Below are positions 31,097 through 50,882 of a stretch of 64,000 bases of DNA, one piece after another. Within the stretch, counting starts at the first letter, position 1. Each line of letters begins with the position of its first letter. Origin of the DNA: a virus (taxonomy: Duplodnaviria; Caudoviricetes); IMG/VR virus record IMGVR_UViG_3300031857_023573, positions 161,080 to 225,079 of that record; one strand, written 5' to 3'. Both the position numbers and the translations under genes were made by a program. The notes under the pieces were generated by a model that ran no database searches, was not told where the DNA came from, and saw nothing but the letters and a program-made list of their open reading frames with translations.

Positions 31097-33730
31097 TTAT
31101 CTGACAAGAGAAATTCTTCCTCTATAAACATGAATTTTATTGAAGATATCGGTCACAAAAAATTGATATACATATACATCTATTTGACAATCTACACCAT
31201 TTAGTGTTCCATCCCAAACGGGATTCTGTGAAGTTTCTTCAAATATCTTCACGCCCCATCTATTAAATATTTGCATAGTAACACTTTTATAGTTTGTTCC
31301 TTTTCCAAAAAATACTTCATTTTCGTTATCATCTGAGGGTGTAAATGCATTTGGTATATAGAATGTAAAAACTGGCTTGATCTCTATTGATCTAAAAGAT
31401 GTGTCTAGACATCCAAATTGATTTCTACATACAAGATTAATTGTATATTGGCCAAAATCTTGATAAGTGTGTTCTGGATCGAACAAGTTACTAGTCTGTC
31501 CGTCTCCAAAACTCCAAAGATAGAAGTTCGAACCTTGTGATAAATTGATACAATTAATTGTGTTATTATATTCATCTAATTGTGTATTTTCAATTGAAAA
31601 AAATGATATCGGACTTGGATATACTGTCACAAGAATCGAGTCTCTATTTTCTGAACTACATCCATTATTAGTTGCGACATTTAATGTCACAGTGTACTGA
31701 CCTGGATTTGTATAAATATGAATTGGATTTTCAGAATTCGATGTATAACCATCTCCGAAGTTCCAATTCCAAAAAGAAATATTACCAACTGAGTTGTCAG
31801 TGAAATAAGCTGTAAAGTCTTCACATCCACTCAAGTTAGGATTTTCAATATTTGAAATTGGATTTTGAAAAACTTGAATAATAGAAGATGACTCACTTTG
31901 GCAACCATTATTACTGATTGCGAGTAAATTAACTTGGTATGTACCCGGTCCGGCATATGTATGTGTAGGGTTTACTTGATTACTAAATGTATTATCTCCG
32001 AAGTTCCAGATATAGTTTATAATTAGTCCACTTGTTATGTAACTATCGTTAAAAAATTGTACTAGTTCTGAGTCACAAAAAGTATCATTATTGTCAAAAG
32101 AAACTTGAGGAACTGGAAAAACATTCACAACTTCAAATTGTTCTGACGAGCAAGTAAGTATGCCATCAGTAGAAGTTACACTCAGTGAGACATTATATTG
32201 ACCGGGACTTGTGTAAATAAAAGTAGAGTTTTGACTGGTGGACTGCCATCCTTGTGATCCAAAGTTCCATAGGTAAGAATTTGTCTGTGACCAACTTGGA
32301 ACTTGAGAAAAATTGTAAAAGTTAGAAATTTCTCCAAGACAAATATCATCTGCTAAAAAATTAACAATTGGTCTAGGTTGAACGGTAATTGTCTTTTCTA
32401 TAGTATCTCTACAATTAGAACCGTTAATCTCAGTTATTAATAGAACATTGTACACACCTGTATTTTGATAAAGGTGAGTAGGTGAAAAATTGTTAGAAGT
32501 CTGGCCATCGCCAAAAAACCAAGTGTAGTTATTAGTATATCCAGAAAATTGAGAACTTGTATTAACAAAATAAGAAGTATCATCTTGACACACATTAAAA
32601 GAATTAAAATTAGAAACCGGAGTCGGCCAAATAGTAATTTGCTTACTAAATTGTCCAGTACATCCATCTGAAGAAACAACAGAAAGTGTAACTACATAGT
32701 TTCCTGGATTTGTATAAATATGGCTTGGGCTAAAAAGATTAGATGTTGACCCATCTCCAAAAGTCCAGAAAAAACTCTGAATAGTATCACCACCTGATAT
32801 GTTAGAGGTATTCGTAAATTGAATTGAATTTGAACAATCATCATTATAGGTAAAAATCGGAGTAGGAATTGAAGGTTGAAGATTTGTAGAGAGATTTACT
32901 TGACACCCAGTAGGAGTGGTAATTAGACAAGAAATTGTAGTATATAAATTAGGATTTACAGTTATTGATTCAGTTGTTTCGCCAGTTGACCAAAGATAAT
33001 TAGAAAATCCAGAAGGTGCATTTAAAGTGGCACTAGTATCATTAATACAATAATCTATATCAATTTGGGTTGTTTGACAGTCAAGAAAATCTATATAAGC
33101 ATACCCGAAGTGTCCTCCTAAATCACAATCTCCTGTCTCAAACTCAATCGTGACTGTTTGTCCAATATACGCGGTTAGATCGACTGTTACAAGTGCCCAA
33201 TCTCTCCAAGCAATATTCAGTGGAGTTCCATCGGATCCTACACTTGGACAGTACTGGAAATTTGGTAAATTTGAAGCAGCGGTTACTGTATAATCTGTGC
33301 ACTGTATAACTTGGCCATTTGATAGTCTGACTCTTGATGAGAATCTAGGTTGCTCTTCGTCTAAATGACCGGGATCTTCAAAAACAACAGCGTAAGCATA
33401 TCTTATTAGTGTATTTTGTGGAGTTACATTTAAATTGTAGTATAATCCTTCTGCTTCAGCTCCGACATTATCATTGCCAAGTCTAGCAGAGAAGTTTCCA
33501 TCATAGACAGTTGAAAGTCCTCCACAGGTGTTGGGATCAACTCCTGATGTCATAATAGTTTGTCTACCATTAGTTATTCCGTTATTCGGAAGTGTGATAG
33601 GACAACAAAAGCCTCTTCTTCCAGACCATCCAGTGAAATTACCAAGCTCAAAGTCGGTATTGAAACATTGAGATTGTATTATATTACTAAAAAATAATAA
33701 AACTAGTAAAGTGATAAGTCTTCTTCTCAT
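31097..33730 (-). CDS. secreted PKD-repeat protein with T9SS type-B (gliding-motility) C-terminal domain; start moved to ATG at 33730
   Basis: signal peptide MRRRLITLLVLLFFSNIIQS|Q, six W.FG...P.H.Y..PG.Y-type PKD repeats, C-terminal YIPNAFTP...IFNRWG...WDG...GRISLVR. Confidence 0.9.
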   Translation of the reverse strand: MRRRLITLLVLLFFSNIIQSQCFNTDFELGNFTGWSGRRGFCCPITLPNNGITNGRQTIMTSGVDPNTCGGLSTVYDGNFSARLGNDNVGAEAEGLYYNLNVTPQNTLIRYAYAVVFEDPGHLDEEQPRFSSRVRLSNGQVIQCTDYTVTAASNLPNFQYCPSVGSDGTPLNIAWRDWALVTVDLTAYIGQTVTIEFETGDCDLGGHFGYAYIDFLDCQTTQIDIDYCINDTSATLNAPSGFSNYLWSTGETTESITVNPNLYTTISCLITTPTGCQVNLSTNLQPSIPTPIFTYNDDCSNSIQFTNTSNISGGDTIQSFFWTFGDGSTSNLFSPSHIYTNPGNYVVTLSVVSSDGCTGQFSKQITIWPTPVSNFNSFNVCQDDTSYFVNTSSQFSGYTNNYTWFFGDGQTSNNFSPTHLYQNTGVYNVLLITEINGSNCRDTIEKTITVQPRPIVNFLADDICLGEISNFYNFSQVPSWSQTNSYLWNFGSQGWQSTSQNSTFIYTSPGQYNVSLSVTSTDGILTCSSEQFEVVNVFPVPQVSFDNNDTFCDSELVQFFNDSYITSGLIINYIWNFGDNTFSNQVNPTHTYAGPGTYQVNLLAISNNGCQSESSSIIQVFQNPISNIENPNLSGCEDFTAYFTDNSVGNISFWNWNFGDGYTSNSENPIHIYTNPGQYTVTLNVATNNGCSSENRDSILVTVYPSPISFFSIENTQLDEYNNTINCINLSQGSNFYLWSFGDGQTSNLFDPEHTYQDFGQYTINLVCRNQFGCLDTSFRSIEIKPVFTFYIPNAFTPSDDNENEVFFGKGTNYKSVTMQIFNRWGVKIFEETSQNPVWDGTLNGVDCQIDVYVYQFFVTDIFNKIHVYRGRISLVR

Positions 33731-33871
33731 CTCAAATGTTTTTTTATTATATATTCTTATCAATTTTAGAATAAAATCTATTAATAAAAAATAAAAATTC
33801 AAAAAATCGTTTTTTATTTTAAATAAATAAATATTGTTTTGGATTCGTTTTTTTCACTTAATATATAATTT

Positions 33872-40803: not shown

Positions 40804-41128
40804 TTTCTTTTAAAATTAATTGAAAACTATATTTATCTTTCTCTCTACAACCAGATTTTTTGCCTCTTATATCTCTATAGTATCCTTTATTCTTATTAGG
40901 TGAGTATTTACATTTTATTTTCGAAGTCCAAACCTTTGTCTTATCTCTTTTATAGAAATTAGTAAATTTAGAGCCTATGTGATCAACCCAAATAGGTTGT
41001 GTGATTTGATCTTCATTTGAGTTAAAAAATCCCCAGTAATAATAAGTAGTCTTGGCAGAATGTATTTTGATTCTCTTTTTAAGAATCAACTCTTGTTTAT
41101 TTCTTCTCCAAGCTCTATCTCTTTTCAC
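40790..41128 (-). CDS. basic hypothetical protein
   Basis: 112-aa K/R-rich ORF coupled to the topoisomerase gene. Confidence 0.55.
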   Translation of the reverse strand: MKRDRAWRRNKQELILKKRIKIHSAKTTYYYWGFFNSNEDQITQPIWVDHIGSKFTNFYKRDKTKVWTSKIKCKYSPNKNKGYYRDIRGKKSGCREKDKYSFQLILKENGLV

Positions 41129-42966
41129 TTTAAAATTTGATTTTTCCTTAACTCTGAATTTTTACCAAACCATATTTCCAAGTACTCATCAGATAACTCA
41201 TCTTTTTTGATTTTTGTTAATTTTGGATTATTTATAATTTCAAAATATTCATCATCAACAAGTGCTGCTAATCCTTTTTTATATTTTATATCCCAAAGTT
41301 TTAAATCTTTATCTTTTGACCAATCATTATATTCACTCTGAGAATAAAAAAGTATTTTATTTTTTGTTTTTTTATTTATAGATACAACGATAGGTGTTTC
41401 TACTTTATAAACCATTTCTCTTTCGAAAAGACTTGGCCAATATTTGTTAAAAAAGTTGATTAGAAGAGCTGAAATACTATTTCCATCAACATCAGCGTCA
41501 GATAAGATAAGTATTCTACCATATCTCAGATTTTTTAAATCTGGTTCTTGTCCTAATTTCAAACCAATAGCCGCCATAAGATTCACCGCCTCGTCGTTTT
41601 GCGTCAACTTTTGTGTAGTTATTTCTGAGACATTTATAAATTTACCTTTTAACGAGAAACTACCCATAGTTTGTGCATCTCTATATTTTCTGAAAGCTGC
41701 TGCTGCAGAATCTCCCTCAAATATGTTGATTGAGCATTTCCATCTATCTTTAGCCTTTGCATCAATCAATTTCTCGACTTTCAGTTTTGAAAGATTCTTA
41801 TTTAATTCTCTTGCAAGCTTACTATCCTCTGCTGACTTTTTTTGTTTAACCCAATCTAATATTGAGTTAACAATATCAGATTTCAGTATAGACTTAATTG
41901 TTTTATCTGATACTTCATAAGTATATCCAAAATCTTTAACTTCTGTAATTAGTTTTTCCTTTGTTTGTGATGAAAAACTAGGATTTACTATCGTTGAGTT
42001 TATGAAAATTGAAATGTGGTTTTTTAACTCTGATGGTTTTACATCAACTTTATATTTCTTCTGAAAGAAATCTCTCATTTCAGAAATAACTTGATTTGAG
42101 ATATATTCTAAGTGTGTTCCCCCGTCATAAGTTTCAGTTGAGTTTACGAAACTAACTTGTGAGAAACCTTCTTCTGAAGGAGCAATTGCAATCGACCAAG
42201 ACTTGTCTTTATTTGTTTCAAAGAAATAGTCTGACTTGTAATATTTCACATAGTCCTCAAATGTCTTGATTTTTATTTCTACTCCGTTAAAATATATTTT
42301 AATGTTTGGATTGCAACCAGCTATATCCACCACTCTTTTTTGAATTAGTTTAAAGTGCTCGTCATCAAGACAGACAAGTCCAAACTTTTCATAGTCCGGT
42401 AAAAATGATATTTGTGTGAAGTTTTTAGTTGATTTTTTTACTTGTGGCTCTTCACGATTTCTCATGTTGTCTGTAAAAGTCTGAGTAAAAACATTAGTGC
42501 CATCGCAAGTAGTGACTGTAAAGACTTTTGAAAATACATTTGTAAGTTTAGAACCATATCCATTAGTTCCTGCTCCTATTCTGTCTTCAGTATCATCATA
42601 ATTAGAACCAGACATCAAATTACCAAAAATTACTTCTGGTACGTATTTTCCGTGATCTTTGTGCACAACTACTGGAATTCCACCAGAATCTTTTACCGAA
42701 ATCATACCAGACTCTTTGTCAATAGTAACTTCAATTTTATTTAACTGAGGATTTCTTTTACTCTCATCTACTGAGTTTATTATTATCTCATCGAATATTT
42801 TTAAAAAAGAAGGTACATAAGTGATTTCTTCCTTTATCATTTTATCTCCACTAAAAATCCACTTATTGGCAGTATGTGGTTTATTTGATCCCAAATAAGT
42901 TTGTGGCCTCAATAAAATGTGGTCAATGTGATTGAGTACTTTGTATTTATCTTCAATTTTCTTCAT
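41125..42966 (-). CDS. type II DNA topoisomerase ATPase/TOPRIM subunit (T4 gp39+60-like)
   Basis: HILLRPQTYLGS, EIIINSVDE, SNYDD, GTNGYGSKL, EGDSA, LKGK, DADVDG and YKKGL motifs. Confidence 0.95.
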   Translation of the reverse strand: MKKIEDKYKVLNHIDHILLRPQTYLGSNKPHTANKWIFSGDKMIKEEITYVPSFLKIFDEIIINSVDESKRNPQLNKIEVTIDKESGMISVKDSGGIPVVVHKDHGKYVPEVIFGNLMSGSNYDDTEDRIGAGTNGYGSKLTNVFSKVFTVTTCDGTNVFTQTFTDNMRNREEPQVKKSTKNFTQISFLPDYEKFGLVCLDDEHFKLIQKRVVDIAGCNPNIKIYFNGVEIKIKTFEDYVKYYKSDYFFETNKDKSWSIAIAPSEEGFSQVSFVNSTETYDGGTHLEYISNQVISEMRDFFQKKYKVDVKPSELKNHISIFINSTIVNPSFSSQTKEKLITEVKDFGYTYEVSDKTIKSILKSDIVNSILDWVKQKKSAEDSKLARELNKNLSKLKVEKLIDAKAKDRWKCSINIFEGDSAAAAFRKYRDAQTMGSFSLKGKFINVSEITTQKLTQNDEAVNLMAAIGLKLGQEPDLKNLRYGRILILSDADVDGNSISALLINFFNKYWPSLFEREMVYKVETPIVVSINKKTKNKILFYSQSEYNDWSKDKDLKLWDIKYKKGLAALVDDEYFEIINNPKLTKIKKDELSDEYLEIWFGKNSELRKNQILK

Positions 42967-43065: not shown

Positions 43066-43596
43066 ATGCAACTAAAAACGATTACTGACTTTCTATCAAA
43101 CGAGTACAAGGAATTTGCCTTTTATACTATTGAGAATAGGGCTCTTCCTTCGCTTATAGATGGATTTAAAATAAGTCAACGTAAAATTATAAATGCGTCG
43201 TGTAATGTGTGGAAAACAGGTACTGAGAAACACTTAAAGGTGTTTCAACTTTCCGGTATAGTTGCTTCTACCCAATTTTATCATCACGGTGACTGTCTGG
43301 ATCCCGAGACAGAAATAATAATGAGCGACGGTAGCGTCATCAGATTAATCGATTGGTTTAATAACTTTCCTGACAAGGAACTAAGTCTCGTTTCATATGA
43401 TGAGACTTCTGGTAAATTTTGTGAATCGATAGGTCATTCTCCTAGAATAGGTAACATCACAAAAGAAGAAATACAAATTGAGTTAGAAAATGGAGAGATT
43501 ATTAAGTGTACACCGAATCATCCGTTTCTAACGCAAAGAGGTTGGGTTCAAGCAGAGTTTCTTACCGATCAAGACGAGATAAAGAGTTTCATTTGA
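43066..43596 (+). CDS. topoisomerase II cleavage subunit (gp52/GyrA-like) N-extein (76 aa) fused to intein N-half (100 aa)
   Basis: RALPSLIDGFK and YHHGD, then CLDPETEI (block A) and KCTPNHPF (block B), then a stop. Confidence 0.93.
   Translation: MQLKTITDFLSNEYKEFAFYTIENRALPSLIDGFKISQRKIINASCNVWKTGTEKHLKVFQLSGIVASTQFYHHGDCLDPETEIIMSDGSVIRLIDWFNNFPDKELSLVSYDETSGKFCESIGHSPRIGNITKEEIQIELENGEIIKCTPNHPFLTQRGWVQAEFLTDQDEIKSFI
43294..43593 (+). mobile_element. split intein, N-terminal half (IntN)
   Basis: Cys1 at TGT 43294; TxxH block B; acidic end. Confidence 0.92.
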
Positions 43597-43644
43597 TCTC
43601 CATGGTGGTAAAAATTACAATATTAGAATTTTTATATATAGATT

Positions 43645-44568
43645 ATGATATGTAATAGATGTAATAGTGAGTTCCACAATAAATCAATTTCGCCGAAATG
43701 GATGGAAAAGAATCCAGATAAATTTAAATTGTGTCCAGATTGTAGGAAATTCAGAATTTGTCCAATTTGTGAAGTTGAGTTTCATCATAAACAGAATCAA
43801 ACCTGCTCCTTAAAATGTTCACGAGATCTGAAGGAGAGAAGTTTTCTAAAGTCTTGTGGTACACCACATAATTTTTATAAAAACTCGAAATCTAGACTAA
43901 AATGGCAAGAAGACATGATGAATAATGAAGGAATATCAAATATTTTTCAGAGAAAATCAGTCAAAGAAAAAATGAAAATGACTTTGTTGGAAAAATACGG
44001 TGTGAATAATGTATCTGAACATGAATCGATTAAGAAAAGAAAAAAAGATACTCTTAAAAAGACAATTGAACAGAATCCGAATTTATTTAAAGAAAACTGG
44101 CTAAGATCACACGATAGATTTATCTTAGAGTTAGGATTCGATCCTAGACAACACACTTTCGGAAAGGCCTCTAAAGAATCAATGTTAGTGTTTGGAGAAT
44201 TATACAATTGGTGCATAGAAATTGGTTTAAGTGAGGATGACATTTATATCGGTAATGAAAATAAAAGTGAATTTTTCATTCAAACTGGTAAGAGAGTTTA
44301 TTTCTATGATTTCACAATTAGAAGTGAAAAGTTGATTATAGAATTCCATGGCACTACTTTTCACGTAAGAGAAGATGATCCAGATAGAAAAAAATGGAGA
44401 AATCCATTTACAAATGAAAATTGGAAAACTAACGTAAAAAAAACTCGTATTAAAAACAAAGTTGCGACAAAAAGAGGGTTCAAAATATTGGAAATTTGGT
44501 CAGATGTACCTATAGAAACAAATATCAAAAATTGTAAAGAGTTTATAAATGAAAATAAAATCAGTTAA
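43645..44568 (+). mobile_element. free-standing Vsr/DUF559-like homing endonuclease between the split-intein halves
   Basis: CxxC clusters, KYGV repeat, YFYDF..RSEKLIIEFHGTTFH and GFKILEIW motifs. Confidence 0.8.
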
Positions 44569-44668
44569 AAAAATCGTACTAGATGAGGAGAAAAAATTCT
44601 ATGATATAACAGTAAATAAATATCATAATTTTTTGATAAACAAGAATGCAATGTTAGTAACTCACAAC
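44549..44668 (+). mobile_element. split intein, C-terminal half (IntC)
   Basis: block F YDITV/HNF and block G His-Asn followed by Ser+1. Confidence 0.92.
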
Positions 44669-45781
44669 TCATCTTTAAATTCTGCTGTCATTAATTTAGC
44701 TCAAAAGTTTAAAAACAATGTACCACTTTTAGAAGAAGATGGTCAATTCGGTTCTCTAAGGTCCCCTCAAGCAGGAGCACCGAGATATATTGGTACTAAA
44801 TTAAGTCCTAATTTTAGATTAATCTATAAAGATTTTGAACTTCTAGAATACAAAGAAGAAGAAGGTGAAAAAATTGAACCGACTTATTTCTTACCTATAG
44901 TTCCAACTGTTCTTGTGAATGGTGGTTCTGGAATTGCTGTAGGTTTTGCATCTAACATCTTAAATCGAGACTTGAAAGAACTAATTAGTGTTTGTGTGAA
45001 ATATTTAAAAGACGGTAAAATAGCAAAAATTTCACCATTCTTACAAGGATTTACAGGTGAGTATATTCAAGACGTAGATAACCCAAAAAAATGGCATATT
45101 AGAGGAAAATTTGAAAAAGTAAATACTACAACCGTAAAGATTACTGAGCTTCCGCCATCAATGACTTATGAGAAGTATGAAGAGGTACTTGATAAGTTAA
45201 TTGATAATAAAGATATTGTTTCTTATGATGATAATTGTAAAGACAATATAGATTACACAATAAAGTTCACCAGAGTTGATTTAGAGTCACATGACACTGA
45301 AAAATTATATAAACTGCTTAAACTTGAAGAGAATGAAACGGAAAACTTCAATACTCTCGATGAAAATGGCAAGTTAAAAATATTTGAAAGTGTTGAAGAA
45401 ATTATAAAATACTTTGTTGATTTCAGACTAACTTATTATCAAAAAAGAAAAGACTATCAATTATCAAAACTTCAAAGTGAGTTAAAATTACTTGGAAACA
45501 GAGGTAAGTTTATAAAATGTGTACTAGATGGTAAAATTGAAATTAACAATAAGCCAAAAGACGATATTATCGTTCAAATAGAAGAAAACTCAATTGAAAA
45601 AATAGATGATTCCTATGATTATCTACTAAGAATGCCAATCTACTCTCTAACCAAAGAAATGTTTGAAAAACTTAAATCAGAATTCACGTCTAAAAAAGAG
45701 GAAATTGAGAAGTTAAAATCTATTGAACCTAAAGACTTATACCTTACGGACCTTAATGAATTAAAACAGAAAATTAAATGA
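44549..45781 (+). CDS. intein C-half (40 aa) fused to topoisomerase II cleavage subunit C-extein (370 aa)
   Basis: MKIKSVKK...FYDITV..YHNF...VTHN then SSLNSAVINLAQ, GQFGS, APRYI (catalytic Tyr), VNGGSGIAVGF. Confidence 0.93.
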   Translation: MKIKSVKKIVLDEEKKFYDITVNKYHNFLINKNAMLVTHNSSLNSAVINLAQKFKNNVPLLEEDGQFGSLRSPQAGAPRYIGTKLSPNFRLIYKDFELLEYKEEEGEKIEPTYFLPIVPTVLVNGGSGIAVGFASNILNRDLKELISVCVKYLKDGKIAKISPFLQGFTGEYIQDVDNPKKWHIRGKFEKVNTTTVKITELPPSMTYEKYEEVLDKLIDNKDIVSYDDNCKDNIDYTIKFTRVDLESHDTEKLYKLLKLEENETENFNTLDENGKLKIFESVEEIIKYFVDFRLTYYQKRKDYQLSKLQSELKLLGNRGKFIKCVLDGKIEINNKPKDDIIVQIEENSIEKIDDSYDYLLRMPIYSLTKEMFEKLKSEFTSKKEEIEKLKSIEPKDLYLTDLNELKQKIK

Positions 45782-46155: not shown

Positions 46156-46743
46156 ATGATATTTTACCAAAAACTTAGAGAAACCGTCACTGGGAAAATA
46201 GTAATTGCGAATATTATTATGTTTGTAATTTCATTTTTCTGTGGTATCCTTTCTCAAGAAAGTGAATTAATTCGTCTTTTTGCTCTTCAACCATCAAACT
46301 TTCATTACTATCAATTAATCACACATCAATTTTTACATGGTGGTTTTTTTCATTTATTATTTAATATGATAGGTCTTTATACCATTGGAAAAGATGTTGA
46401 GAAGTGGTTAGGATCTAACTTTTTAGTCTATTATTTATTTTGTGGTGTATATGCTGCATTTTTTCATCTTAGTATATCAGATTCTACAAACCCAATGGTT
46501 GGTGCATCTGGTGCTATATTCGGATTACTTTCAATTTGGACACTTTTAAATCCAAATCAATATCTTGGAATTATATTCTTACCTATTGCAATACGAGCTA
46601 AATATTTAACTTCACTTTTAATTATTTCAGAAGTTTTACTTCAAATCTATTCTAAAGATAATATCTCACACCTTGCTCACATTGGTGGATTTATTTGTGG
46701 TTTGTGTATTTTTTTCATTCAGAAGTTTTTTAATAATCGATAG
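46156..46743 (+). CDS. rhomboid family intramembrane serine protease
   Basis: HQFLHGGFFHLLFNM, GASGAIFG (catalytic Ser), SHLAHIGG (catalytic His); multiple TM segments. Confidence 0.92.
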   Translation: MIFYQKLRETVTGKIVIANIIMFVISFFCGILSQESELIRLFALQPSNFHYYQLITHQFLHGGFFHLLFNMIGLYTIGKDVEKWLGSNFLVYYLFCGVYAAFFHLSISDSTNPMVGASGAIFGLLSIWTLLNPNQYLGIIFLPIAIRAKYLTSLLIISEVLLQIYSKDNISHLAHIGGFICGLCIFFIQKFFNNR

Positions 46744-47219: not shown

Positions 47220-50200
47220 ATGAATAGAAAATGGTGGTCCAGGGAAAATCAAGATTCTCAAAATAATCAACAGTCAGGTCCTAATGGAGAGGTGTCGTTT
47301 AATCCTCTACATGTTGGGGATTTTAATCTTAATCCTTTTGTTAACCAACAGTCTGCCTTTGATTCAAATGTTTTACTGTTCAGATACTTCTTTGATGATG
47401 GTAGTAATCCGTTTTCTTCTCAACTAATGAATAACTTAGATTCTGGTACTGTTTCACCTGGAATGATTGCGATAGATAATGGTATAAAAGAAGGTAATGA
47501 ACACTTATGGCTATCAAATACATCTCTTTATGGATTCAGCGCATCTATAATTTGGGAAAGTCCTTATTTTCAAAACTTCCCCGAAGTAGTTGGATATGTG
47601 TCCGATCTGGGAAATGCTTATTACTTTGTTAATAATATAGAACCTGGTGACTTTATTCATGTTCATGTTTATGAACCAATTGATATATTCCCACCCGAGG
47701 GAGATGTAACTTGGAATCAGGAAGGTATTAGTACAACTGTTACTGTAACTTACAAAGTAAATAGTGTAGGTGACTGGACGAGTAATCCGACTCCGGGAAA
47801 TAGATCGACTAGGTATTTTAACGTCACAAACTTGACTCCTGGTTTTGAGACCTTCATATCGGTTAATTCTGGTAGCGGTCCAATTATGGGAGTCTCGGTA
47901 ACAAAGGCCAGTGCAATATCTTCTGGGATAGGGGCGACCGGTGCACCTGGACTACCTGGCTCTAACTCACTGTATTTTTCTTATGCGGCTGGTGATGTAA
48001 TTGCATCTCCACCCTCTGACTTTCTAGGTTCTGGTTACTTCTATACTGACTATCACTTTAATCCAAACAACCAGTACTTATGGATTTCTAATACCTCCTT
48101 ACAAGGATACGATCCGGTGACTCTTATTCCGGGAAATGCAACAACTTGGGTCGATCAAATAGAAGTTGGTGATATTATATCTTGTTATGTACAAAGAGAC
48201 GGTCTATTTCTTACTGATCTATCATATGGTGGTATCGAATTTGGAGTACCTATGGTTTATAACATATTCAGAGTCACTGAAATTTATGGATGGGATGTTG
48301 ACCCATCACCACCAGAAGTAGCAACCAAGAAATTTGGTGTAGAAACCCTTATGACTAATTTTGAGGCTACTTTTGTTGGTGACGGTCCTTACATATTCTC
48401 TGTCTCTTTCACAAAAATGGGCGTTGATGGTACTCCTGGTCCTCAAGGACCTACTGGACCTGCTGGTGGTCCTCAAGGATTTACTGGACCACAAGGTCCT
48501 ACTGGATTTTTAATATTAAATAATTATGCAACTGGTGCTCAGGGTTCTACTGGTCCATTAGGATTAACGGGTGATCCAGGTCCACAAGGTCCTGCAGGTG
48601 ATATTGGACCTGAGGGATCTCCCGGTCCACAAGGTGATTTGGGTCCACAAGGTGTTCCAGGTCCAACTGGTCCTATGGGCGAACCAGGTCCACCAAACGG
48701 ACCTCAGGGAGCAAAAGGTTCTCCTGGAACAAAAGGTACTGAAGGAAATCCGGGATCTAATTCATTAATTTATATTAGTAGTGGAACAAATGCCGCAACA
48801 GCTGGTCGATTCCGTCTAAGTACTCTTAATTTCAATGGTGTAACAGTTATTCAAATATTCGATACATCTTCTAATTATTCGGCAACTGTTCTACCGGCAG
48901 GCAATGCGGCTAACTGGTTATCTAATGTGGTAGAGGGAACTGTATTGCAAATTTATGCACATGGTAGTTCTTCTAATTATGGCATTTATAGAGTATCAAG
49001 TGTAGTATCGGTTTCAGGTGGTGTTCGAACGCTTTCTGTTCAACTCATATCAGGAAACGGATCAGTAATACTTGGAAGAATCTATACGATTTCTTATTTA
49101 CTAACCGGAAACACCGGTGTTCAGGGTTATCAAGGAATCGAGGGTCCAACTGGTAGTCAAGGAAACTTTGGTCCAACCGGTATACAAGGTCCTACAGGTC
49201 TCCGAGGTAATACAGGTATTCAAGGAAATCCTGGTGCAAACTCTCTAATTTATAAAAGTAGAGGAGTTTTAACCTTAGCTTACGGTGCTTTTAGAACCAA
49301 CACTCAAAATTTTGCTTCTGTTAATACTATAAGTATATCTTATAATCCTGGGACCTATAATGGTGGTATTTTAAGTACACCTACTGCTTTTAACTGGGTC
49401 TCTAGTATCGGTGTTGGTAGTATACTTCAAATTTATGAAGTTGGATCGTCATCCATCTATGCTATTTATACTGTAACAAGTGTTTCACTTACAGGTACTG
49501 GTAATACCACTTCTGGTGGTACATTTGGTTTGACTTTAATGTCTTCAAACGGTTCTCATTCTACTGGTAGAATGTATACAATCTCGTGGTTACCAGTGGG
49601 AATTGGTGGAGTTGGTGGACCAGGTGGAACAGGATTTCAAGGTTCCACAGGACCTACTGGACCAGCAGGGGTACCGGGAACTCAAGGTGCTACAGGACCA
49701 GCTGGTGGTCCACAAGGTTTTACTGGACCAACTGGACCAACAGGATTCATAATTAACAACAACTATGCTACTGGACCAACTGGAAGACAAGGTTCAACTG
49801 GACCTCAAGGATTCACTGGACCAACTGGAAGACAAGGTTCAACTGGACCTCAAGGATTCACTGGAACAACAGGAAGACAGGGTGTTACTGGTCCTCAAGG
49901 ATCTAGTGGATTTCAAGGTCCTACAGGCCCTACACTAGAACCATTAACTCAGAGAAGGAGATGGAAAGAAGACCAAACAGCTTCTTATACTCTTACTTCT
50001 GGAACTACACCATCTGTAATTAGATTTTATAACGCTGGTGACGCATTTGAGTCACCAGGACTAACTAATCCTGATGTCGTGGTTAACTTGAATCCAGCAA
50101 CATCGAGTTTAGGGATTGACAGGAACTGGACATTTATAATCTCTCCATTACAACGCATTGATGTTGGAAAAACCTGGTCTGTTGCCTATAATGGTACTAG

Positions 50201-50882
50201 ACTCGTTGAATATGCTGCTGGTAGAGTTGAACCACAGATATTAAATTTCAGATGGTCTTCTACTAATAACAATCAGACTGGTGAATATACAGTTACAAGA
50301 ACTTTCGTTGAAAATTTATTGGACACAAGTACTTCTACCTCAAACTCTTTAGCAAGAGATTTCACAAATACAAAAAGACAAATGGTTCACGGTTTCGGTG
50401 GTATTCCCGGGGCTGGTGGAATCACATTAAATAGTGGACAGACCCGAGGTGGTTCTACTGAGTTCCCGAAAAATTCAATTATATTTTTGGAGGAAGTTGT
50501 AATCATGTGTCAGTCTTTTTCTCAATCTGTGGGTTGTTCAGTATCATTCGGATTAAAAAGATCGTCGACAACAACTGGATCTACTGTAGTACCTCTACCT
50601 TTTAGTCCACCCCTTTCTGAATTTGGATATACAGATAGTACAGAACTACTTTCTTTACCACAGAGTATTTTCACATGGGGAACAGGCAGTGTCGCATACG
50701 CAAGGGCCGGAGGAGGTATAGTCAGACTCGCAGAACCTGCTGAATTGATTATAAAGATAACTAACGGAACTTTCCAATCTGGAACCGGTTTAATAGCCAT
50801 AGTGCCATACATTGTTTATGATGTTACACAACCATCTACATTTACACAATCTACAATAACACCCAAAAGGCTACAAAATTAA
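47220..50882 (+). CDS. collagen-like fibre protein with repeated globular modules
   Basis: several Gly-X-Y runs separated by modules starting GSNSLY/GSNSLIY/GANSLIY. Confidence 0.8.

Follow-up and report, generated by a model that had tools for sequence, protein, structure and literature searches.

Fractured genes, in which a host enzyme is encoded in two pieces joined to the halves of a split intein, were described from ocean metagenomes by Dassa, London, Stoddard, Schueler-Furman and Pietrokovski in 2009, the cases being gp41-1 to -8, NrdJ-1, IMPDH-1, NrdA-2, DnaE, ligase and terminase (PMC2677866). A family of Vsr-like endonucleases was first described in these fractured genes (PMC2677866) and was later characterised as I-Bth0305I (PMC3239194), a Vsr-like (EDxHD) homing endonuclease found in the recA group I intron of Bacillus phage 0305phi8-36 (PMC3239194; PDB 3r3p). 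Here, we analyse a 64,000-nucleotide stretch of viral DNA (referred to as the window; positions 161,080 to 225,079 of the IMG/VR record IMGVR_UViG_3300031857_023573) from a very large freshwater phage, in which the T4 gp52-like cleavage subunit of topoisomerase II is encoded in two pieces with an endonuclease gene between them. The reading that we favour, with a probability of roughly 0.85, is that this locus is a fractured gene, in which a class 1 mini-intein residing in the gp52-like subunit has been split by the endonuclease gene and the subunit is made by protein trans-splicing.

ORF (open reading frame) reading of the window showed that three ORFs on one strand together occupy positions 43066-45781. 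Their parts are as follows.

43066-43596, plus strand: ORF1, the N-extein and N-intein, 176 aa, with its stop codon TGA at 43594.
43066..43293, plus strand: N-extein, the first 76 aa of the gp52/GyrA-like cleavage subunit, ending in Y-H-H-G-D (DNA_topoisoIV, PHROG 551).
43294..43596, plus strand: N-intein, 100 aa, followed by TGA at 43594-43596 (TIGR01445, Cys1, block B).
43597..43644, plus strand: AT-rich spacer of 48 nt, GC content 0.21, from the N-intein stop to the endonuclease start.
43645..44568, plus strand: ORF2, a predicted free-standing homing endonuclease gene, 307 aa (DUF7487, Vsr-like fold of the model).
44549-45781, plus strand: ORF3, the C-intein and C-extein, 410 aa (TIGR01443, DNA_topoisoIV).
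44549..44668, plus strand: C-intein, 40 aa, M-K-I-K-S-V-K-K ... L-V-T-H-N, with the codon of the terminal Asn at 44666-44668.
44669..45781, plus strand: C-extein, starting with Ser+1 (44669-44671) and comprising the remaining 370 aa, including the catalytic A-P-R-Y, and the stop.

A first-pass annotation of this DNA had described ORF1 as 76 aa of the cleavage subunit ending in YHHGD, followed by a 100-aa N-intein (Cys1, TPNH) and a stop, and ORF3 as a 40-aa C-intein ending in His-Asn, followed by Ser and the rest of the subunit with its catalytic R-Y. The coordinates, Pfam and TIGR01445 agree with the first description, as do TIGR01443 and DNA_topoisoIV with the second. ORF1 residues 77-156 match TIGR01445 intein_Nterm with an E-value (E) of 9.5e-12 (45.7 bits versus a cut-off of 24.5), and ORF3 residues 17-41 match TIGR01443 intein_Cterm at 26.1 bits (cut-off 15.6). 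Cys1 is residue 77 of ORF1 (codon 43294-43296) and directly follows the N-extein, whereas block B, T-P-N-H, corresponds to intein residues 73-76, with Thr73 and His76 (His codon 43519-43521) as its key positions. In ORF3, the C-intein end T-H-N is followed by S-S-L-N. The net charge is -11 for the N-intein and +4 for the C-intein, and the first 11 residues of the latter already amount to +4, consistent with the earlier description of an acidic and a basic half. Thus, Cys1, T-x-x-H, His-Asn with Ser+1, a HINT fold and a conserved host protein that is restored upon removal, the features that define a class 1 intein, were all found. When a second intein was sought in the window, hidden Markov models built from the N- and C-intein sets matched this intein alone.

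The host sequence on either side of the intein can be followed along a single profile. Residues 25-76 of ORF1 correspond to positions 1-50 of the Pfam DNA_topoisoIV profile (E 2.7e-10) and residues 40-399 of ORF3 to positions 50-423 (E 2.4e-74); the topoisomerase parts of both ORFs also match PHROG 551, DNA topoisomerase II (E 4e-23 for ORF1 and 2.8e-124 for ORF3). Since the profile resumes in ORF3 at position 50, where ORF1 ends, the host profile is cut once and nothing is lost or duplicated. When the exteins are joined, a protein of 446 aa reading HHGD-SSLNS is obtained; the first-pass annotation had arrived at the same length, and it equals that of intein-less orthologues with their HHGD/x-S-L junction. 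A full DNA_topoisoIV domain, the catalytic Tyr and a gp39-like partner are all present, as expected for a cleavage subunit of the T4 gp52 type. Between ORF1 and ORF2 there are four in-frame stops of three kinds (TGA, TAA, TAG, TAG), and ORF3 lies in a different frame with a TAA directly before its ATG, so that the ORFs cannot be joined by any single stop-codon reassignment or by read-through. The C-intein start overlaps the end of the endonuclease ORF by 20 nt, and the intein halves are 952 nt apart. An identical three-ORF layout was found in more than 10 independent contigs, which is far beyond chance.

Because the window is a metagenome-type record, the interruption might be an artefact of assembly or sequencing, that is, a chimeric contig or false stops. 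The stretch is present in 20 runs from 16 studies, mostly lake and freshwater metagenomes. In X7, X11, X13 and X15, four runs from as many studies, zero-difference contigs connect the stop of the N-intein with the start of the endonuclease gene; the junction between the endonuclease end and the C-intein start is crossed by a zero-difference contig in X7 and by one with 6 differences in X13. In these four runs, no contig joined across the endonuclease gene alone; one joint skipped the whole intein and came from an intein-less relative. With identical contigs over both junctions in independent runs and studies, and the same layout in more than 10 other contigs from different collections, an artefact is scarcely credible.

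The junction is further defined by relatives. The nearest ones in the databases are the huge phages (462-642 kb) LR756500-LR756504 and LR745206, of which LR756502 and LR756504 encode uninterrupted proteins of 447 and 450 aa with YHHGD followed by S-S-L. As a group, intein-less orthologues are 446-450 aa long and continue from HHGD to x-S-L without a gap. ORF3 was searched against 5.8 billion proteins and the best 120 clusters (90% identity) were classified: 69 are intein-less (mostly 446 aa), 48 are fragments led by a C-intein (410-411 aa) and 2 are contiguous proteins of 590-591 aa, both carrying a mini-intein at the same site as the window. Ser+1 is present in all 48 fragment clusters and is not a distinctive trait. 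The contiguous relative P0001 is 96% identical to ORF3 and has a short linker between the intein halves where the window has a stop, the endonuclease gene and a start. Its contig is syntenic with the window downstream of the locus (a 117-aa ORF, a rhomboid gene, a 125-aa ORF and a collagen-like giant). P0002, an intein-less orthologue, aligns with T4 gp52 (PDB 8ylu) over its full length (E 1.5e-71). The N-terminal 200 aa align with E. coli GyrA at 31% identity, and in this alignment the insertion falls between the residues equivalent to GyrA Asp82 and Ser83. This makes the +1 Ser the counterpart of Ser83, the quinolone-resistance residue where the DNA-gate helix starts.

Related alleles were surveyed by tblastn of five locus parts against 140 loci followed by ORF reading, and 21 related loci were compared. 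Split alleles with an intact endonuclease homologue are those of the window, L001 (LR756500.1), L008, L047/L068, L066, L067, L069/L070, L073, L074 and L075, in which 945-992 nt separate the stop of the N-intein from the start of the C-intein. In other split alleles, the endonuclease gene is decaying. L059, the closest split relative of the window, retains a 55-codon endonuclease remnant in a gap of 224 nt, and the start of the window spacer is conserved in it; the gaps of L071, L007 and L065 are 272, 467 and 727 nt, and in L072 (4328-5257) the endonuclease gene has an internal stop while both intein halves are intact. L060 is a split allele without an endonuclease, with a gap of 54 nt. Contiguous mini-intein alleles are represented by P0001, P0054 (L057/L058) and L063. 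In a tree of the inteins, the window groups with L059 and the contiguous P0001 in a clade supported at 100/100, and contiguous forms are interspersed with split ones. Such a tree fits either direction of change, as endonuclease genes may have invaded empty inteins or may have been deleted from split ones.

None of the 21 loci departs from Cys1, C-T-x-N-H-P-F or H-N, and all have a +1 nucleophile, which is Thr in L071 and Ser in the others; the C-intein ends in T-H-N throughout, save for V-H-N in L001. Cys1 and the block B Thr and His are likewise invariant in 24 contiguous inteins of the same site. The catalytic residues are kept even where the endonuclease has decayed (L059, L071, L007, L065 and L072) or is gone (L060). 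Where synonymous sites are unsaturated, ratios of nonsynonymous to synonymous substitution rates (dN/dS) for the intein halves range over 0.04-0.34, with every pair but one within 0.04-0.22, similar to the 0.07-0.18 of the flanking extein parts where these could be estimated. We conclude that both intein halves are under purifying selection. Since the catalytic residues are also conserved where loss of the endonuclease leaves no gain in mobility, this pattern argues that selection maintains covalent splicing.

The same data bear on the possibility that insertion of the endonuclease inactivated the subunit and that the phage relies on a host gyrase or topoisomerase IV. Loss of gene function is a possible consequence of homing endonuclease insertion, and the window alone cannot show function. 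However, the frames and catalytic motifs of both pieces are intact in many diverged phages, the dN/dS ratios of intein halves and exteins speak against decay, as many as 48 of the 120 closest clusters hold split alleles, and the gp39-like partner is intact next door. A dead gene is accordingly very unlikely.

The gap between the intein halves could also be removed at the level of RNA or translation, either by a group I or group II intron carrying the endonuclease ORF or by ribosomal bypass, which would restore a cis-splicing mini-intein. Contiguous alleles of the intein exist, and T4 topoisomerase gene 60 has a translational bypass. In addition, Vsr-like endonucleases do occur in group I introns, I-Bth0305I in a phage recA intron being an example (PMC3239194). 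Against such a removal, no Rfam intron family was detected at E up to 10 in window positions 43300-44800 or in the 224-nt remnant of L059, the spacer lacks a stable fold, the C-intein always has its own ATG overlapping the endonuclease end, and a self-splicing intron would not fit into the 54 nt that lie between the halves in L060. We regard this explanation as highly improbable.

As judged by sequence, the solved intein closest to the window N-intein is NrdJ-1 (8ubs, E 3e-5). Structural comparisons were made with the intein of P0001, which is 86% identical to the window intein over 135 aligned positions of the two halves and whose model, made with 23 other inteins of the site, had a predicted local distance difference test score (pLDDT) of 96.5. 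This model aligns with solved inteins at Z-scores (Z) of 17-21 (Ssp DnaB 21.2, Mtu RecA 20.6, Npu DnaE 18.3 and gp41-1 17.2); NrdJ-1, at Z 19.8 over 139 aligned residues, has the highest identity in the list, 26%. The split point of the window corresponds to the loop at residues 99-104 of the P0001 model, which is the canonical site of endonuclease insertion and splitting. A complex predicted from ORF1 residues 70-176 and ORF3 residues 1-48 scored 0.88, compared with 0.02 for the best control, and passed a mark that is reached by 51 of 78 solved complexes and by 2 of 108 mismatched pairs. Partner pLDDT values were 81-82, and at least 90% of the contacts were shared between runs. What this prediction shows is a resemblance of the halves to a split intein rather than binding between them.

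Association of the halves may be all that is needed. The intein halves would then merely hold the topoisomerase fragments together non-covalently, without splicing, in a manner comparable to NrdA of Aeromonas phage Aeh1, which is split by an endonuclease gene and whose fragments assemble unligated. There are phage enzymes that function in fragments with no need of ligation (PMC3045599), and the complex prediction speaks for association, not for chemistry. Association alone, however, would let Cys1, the block B Thr and His, His-Asn and Ser+1 drift, whereas they are invariant in 21 diverged loci, and Ser+1 is kept throughout the C-fragment clusters. Moreover, a HINT domain of 140 residues beside the DNA-gate helix, at the GyrA Ser83 position, would probably obstruct DNA binding. 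Non-covalent assembly is therefore unlikely.

The protein encoded between the intein halves consists of an N-terminal Cys-rich (zinc-finger-like) region, a middle part matching Pfam DUF7487 (32.6 bits, cut-off 27) and a C-terminal Vsr-like/I-Bth0305I-type nuclease domain (residues ~176-306); it also matches DUF559 and Vsr weakly. A PDB sequence search with the endonuclease gave no match, and neither did Foldseek with the AlphaFold model of ORF2 (pLDDT 71 overall, higher in the C-domain) at E <=0.001; the Vsr-like fold emerged on structural re-alignment. Residues 176-306 of the model align with the I-Bth0305I catalytic domain (3r3p_A) at Z 10.9 and a root-mean-square deviation of 2.4 A over 95 of 97 residues, with 3hrl at Z 10.3 and with Vsr (1cw0) at Z 9.1. 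ORF2 was rejected as a Vsr mismatch repair endonuclease (TIGR00632), scoring 15.5 bits versus a cut-off of 97.85: the fold is shared, the family is not. Homologues of ORF2 occupy the same position in L001, L008, L047, L066, L067, L069, L070, L073, L074 and L075. In seven of the same-position homologues, which are 48-55% identical to ORF2, the N-terminal Cys pairs and, in the C-domain, D222, E233, H240, K270 and E283 are invariant. The 3' end of the endonuclease gene overlaps the C-intein start in 8 of the 8 loci examined, by 4-26 nt, and the spacer of 48 nt in the window measures 37-67 nt in seven relatives. The nuclease activity and mobility of ORF2 are putative.

Mobility of the element is suggested indirectly by its distribution. 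For window positions 43292-44688, an intein-less allele of a related phage, reading H-G-D followed by A-S-L-N-A-S, was found in runs X7, X11 and X15. Intein-less and split alleles are thus present in the same lake runs, that is, donor and recipient alleles for homing co-occur. In a C-extein tree of 54 rows, intein presence needs at least 6 changes that are forced by well-supported branches. The intein-less L054 is separated from the split L070/L007 by extein branch lengths of only 0.003-0.014, and in an L054–L070 DNA comparison 4 of the first 6 bases after the junction differ (A-C-T T-C-A versus T-C-T A-G-T), while the next 35 show no difference. Replacement at the homing site, as opposed to point mutation, could account for this pattern but is not proven by it.

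The occupancy of the insertion site was examined by a HMMER search with ORF1, which returned 214 representative proteins at E <=1e-10. Among the best 150 of these are dozens of GyrA/ParC-like proteins of 600-1400 aa in which HPHGD is followed by C-L, with mini-inteins of 140-186 aa at the site that end in H-N followed by S, as well as ~20 clusters of split N-fragments of 160-183 aa interrupted at the same site. The first-pass annotation had proposed that the site might be new. Full-text searches turned up no publication that describes a split intein in gp52 or topoisomerase II, nor one describing an intein that follows HPHGD; topoisomerase is not mentioned in the split-intein library paper PMC7090010, and the inteins reported in the Jug-phage and Campylobacter-phage papers belong to other genes. 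Among sequences, however, the site is not new, as inteins after H(P)HGD are common in metagenomic GyrA/ParC/gp52-like proteins, both contiguous and as split N-fragments. The start of the DNA-gate helix (GyrA D82|S83, the quinolone-resistance position) is thus a heavily used intein site.

Several observations concern the residues around this site. At the GyrA-Ser83-equivalent position (44669-44671), Ser is found in every split cluster and Thr in L071. The 69 closest intein-less clusters have Met (57), Ala (6) or Gln (6) at this position, and Ser, Asn and Thr are also seen in other intein-less alleles. Since Met, Ala or Gln at +1 could not support splicing if the site were invaded, host alleles with these residues may thereby escape the element. 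In L063 (3356-5539), only six extein residues lie between two contiguous mini-inteins of a gp52-like protein of 727 aa; one follows A-S-D and has Cys+1, the other is at HHGD|S, and Pfam reports four Intein_splicing stretches. This double insertion marks the region of the gp52-like protein as an intein hot spot.

The other subunit of the same enzyme is encoded beside the locus.

41125..42966, minus strand: intact gp39/gp60-like large subunit of the same topoisomerase II, 613 aa (Pfam HATPase_c, DNA_gyraseB, Toprim, TOPRIM_C).

This gene is transcribed divergently from the fractured gp52-like gene, and its product is the putative partner of the spliced subunit. In L001 (LR756500.1, 311-2156), the gp39-like large subunit gene lies directly upstream of the fractured gp52-like gene and also looks fractured. 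There, the ORF at 1422-2156 begins with ~42 residues ending in I-S-H-N, followed by S-A-L-S, and matches Pfam Toprim from residue 43; the 373-aa ORF before this Toprim piece has an HNH-like C-terminus and no Pfam match. If so, a single huge phage would have a split intein in each of its two neighbouring topoisomerase II genes.

The window has a GC content of 32%. Genes at 29055-33802 and 46156-46743 specify an Hsp70 of full length (E 2e-246), a rhomboid protease and a 900-aa protein that combines six PKD domains with a CHU_C type IX secretion signal; a 5'-3' exonuclease is encoded in the window as well. Downstream of the topoisomerase locus are two proteins with collagen triple-helix repeats, 1220 aa (47220-50882) and 571 aa (50897-52612), the larger of which has long Gly-X-Y runs with repeated non-collagen modules between them. 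The CHU_C signal hints at a Bacteroidota host, and the gene content of the window fits a huge phage of such a probable host in fresh water.

Taken together, we propose the following course of events. A mini-intein sitting between the residues equivalent to E. coli GyrA Asp82 and Ser83 would have received, in its usual endonuclease loop, a free-standing Vsr-like (I-Bth0305I-type) endonuclease gene, which cut the intein in two. The insertion would provide the stop codon of the upstream piece and overlap the start codon of the downstream one, giving two products, the N-extein with the acidic N-intein (176 aa) and the basic C-intein with the C-extein (410 aa). The intein halves are then expected to associate into a single HINT domain and to carry out protein trans-splicing by an acyl shift at Cys1, transesterification to Ser+1 and cyclisation of Asn40. 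Release of the intein would leave the 446-aa subunit with the junction HHGD-SSLNS, which could pair with the adjacent 613-aa gp39-like subunit. The fractured-gene layout of the gp41, NrdJ and IMPDH split inteins, with which the first-pass annotation had compared this locus, is borne out here by family models, orthologues, invariant residues, selection, the HINT model, the complex prediction with its controls, the lack of an intron and independent contigs.

Some results weigh against trans-splicing by this locus. No RNA run is among the runs listed for the stretch. Split-intein complexes have already been solved, so that the pass in complex prediction may stem from likeness to them. The region upstream of the endonuclease (43585-43665), searched for a hairpin, folds no better than shuffled sequences (z +1.36). 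The spacer contains a weak promoter-like match (TTGATC-17-TACAAT, 43593-43621), but 24 such matches were found where 15.9 are expected, and the one in the spacer is no better than the AT-rich background.

If trans-splicing does take place, topoisomerase II joins the phage replication enzymes that are assembled in this way. The patchy distribution of the intein, with its at least 6 gains or losses, and the co-occurrence of plus and minus alleles in lake samples document an apparently active homing cycle in huge freshwater phages. Should contiguous and split forms splice equally well, P0001 and the window, ~86% identical, would be a natural matched pair in which the requirements, if there are any, for turning a cis-intein into a fast split intein could be sought. 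For engineering, the locus offers a candidate Cys1/Ser+1 split intein (100 + 40 aa) resembling gp41-1 and NrdJ-1, with many natural variants, and its contiguous, endonuclease-decayed and endonuclease-free relatives provide material for tests of orthogonality and trans function.

How, then, does this locus compare with known systems? Cyanobacterial DnaE split inteins (Ssp, Npu) share with it the canonical split point, an acidic N-half, a basic C-half and the HINT fold. Their halves, however, are far apart, with no endonuclease and with Cys+1, whereas here they are 952 nt apart, with an endonuclease gene between them and Ser+1. The known mycobacterial GyrA inteins adjoin the catalytic Tyr, not D82|S83. 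T4 gp52 belongs to the same family as the intein-less orthologue P0002 but is itself without an intein. I-Bth0305I resembles ORF2 in its C-terminal nuclease fold and in having a separate N-terminal region that putatively binds DNA. It differs in sitting in an intron, whereas ORF2 is free-standing within the intein-coding region; identity in the structural alignment is 20%, and the N-terminal Cys-rich region and DUF7487 set ORF2 apart.

The closest counterparts are the fractured genes of Dassa et al. (PMC2677866). As in these, the N-terminal host part with the N-intein is followed on one strand by a spacer, a free-standing endonuclease gene and the C-intein with the C-terminal host part. The spacers are 27-51 nt there and 48 nt here, the endonucleases are GIY-YIG or Vsr-like there and Vsr-like here, and in both the endonuclease 3' end overlaps the start of the downstream piece; both, too, are of phage origin and have the intein split at the canonical endonuclease loop. 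Dissimilar are the topoisomerase II gp52-like host gene and its insertion site, which are outside the eight enzyme types listed there, and the hairpin upstream of the endonuclease, a non-defining feature reported there for several but not all loci and not found here. In addition, the present intein is also available in contiguous, endonuclease-decayed and endonuclease-free alleles. The fractured-gene layout and the endonuclease family are thus already known (PMC2677866), and the main added value of the present locus is its complete natural allelic series. A tentative reading of this series, to which we give slightly less than even odds, is that one gene family keeps every gene-breaking step of the scheme of Dassa et al., from intein-less to contiguous, endonuclease-split, decayed and finally endonuclease-free split alleles, and that, if both forms splice equally, this mini-intein lineage was pre-adapted to function in trans.

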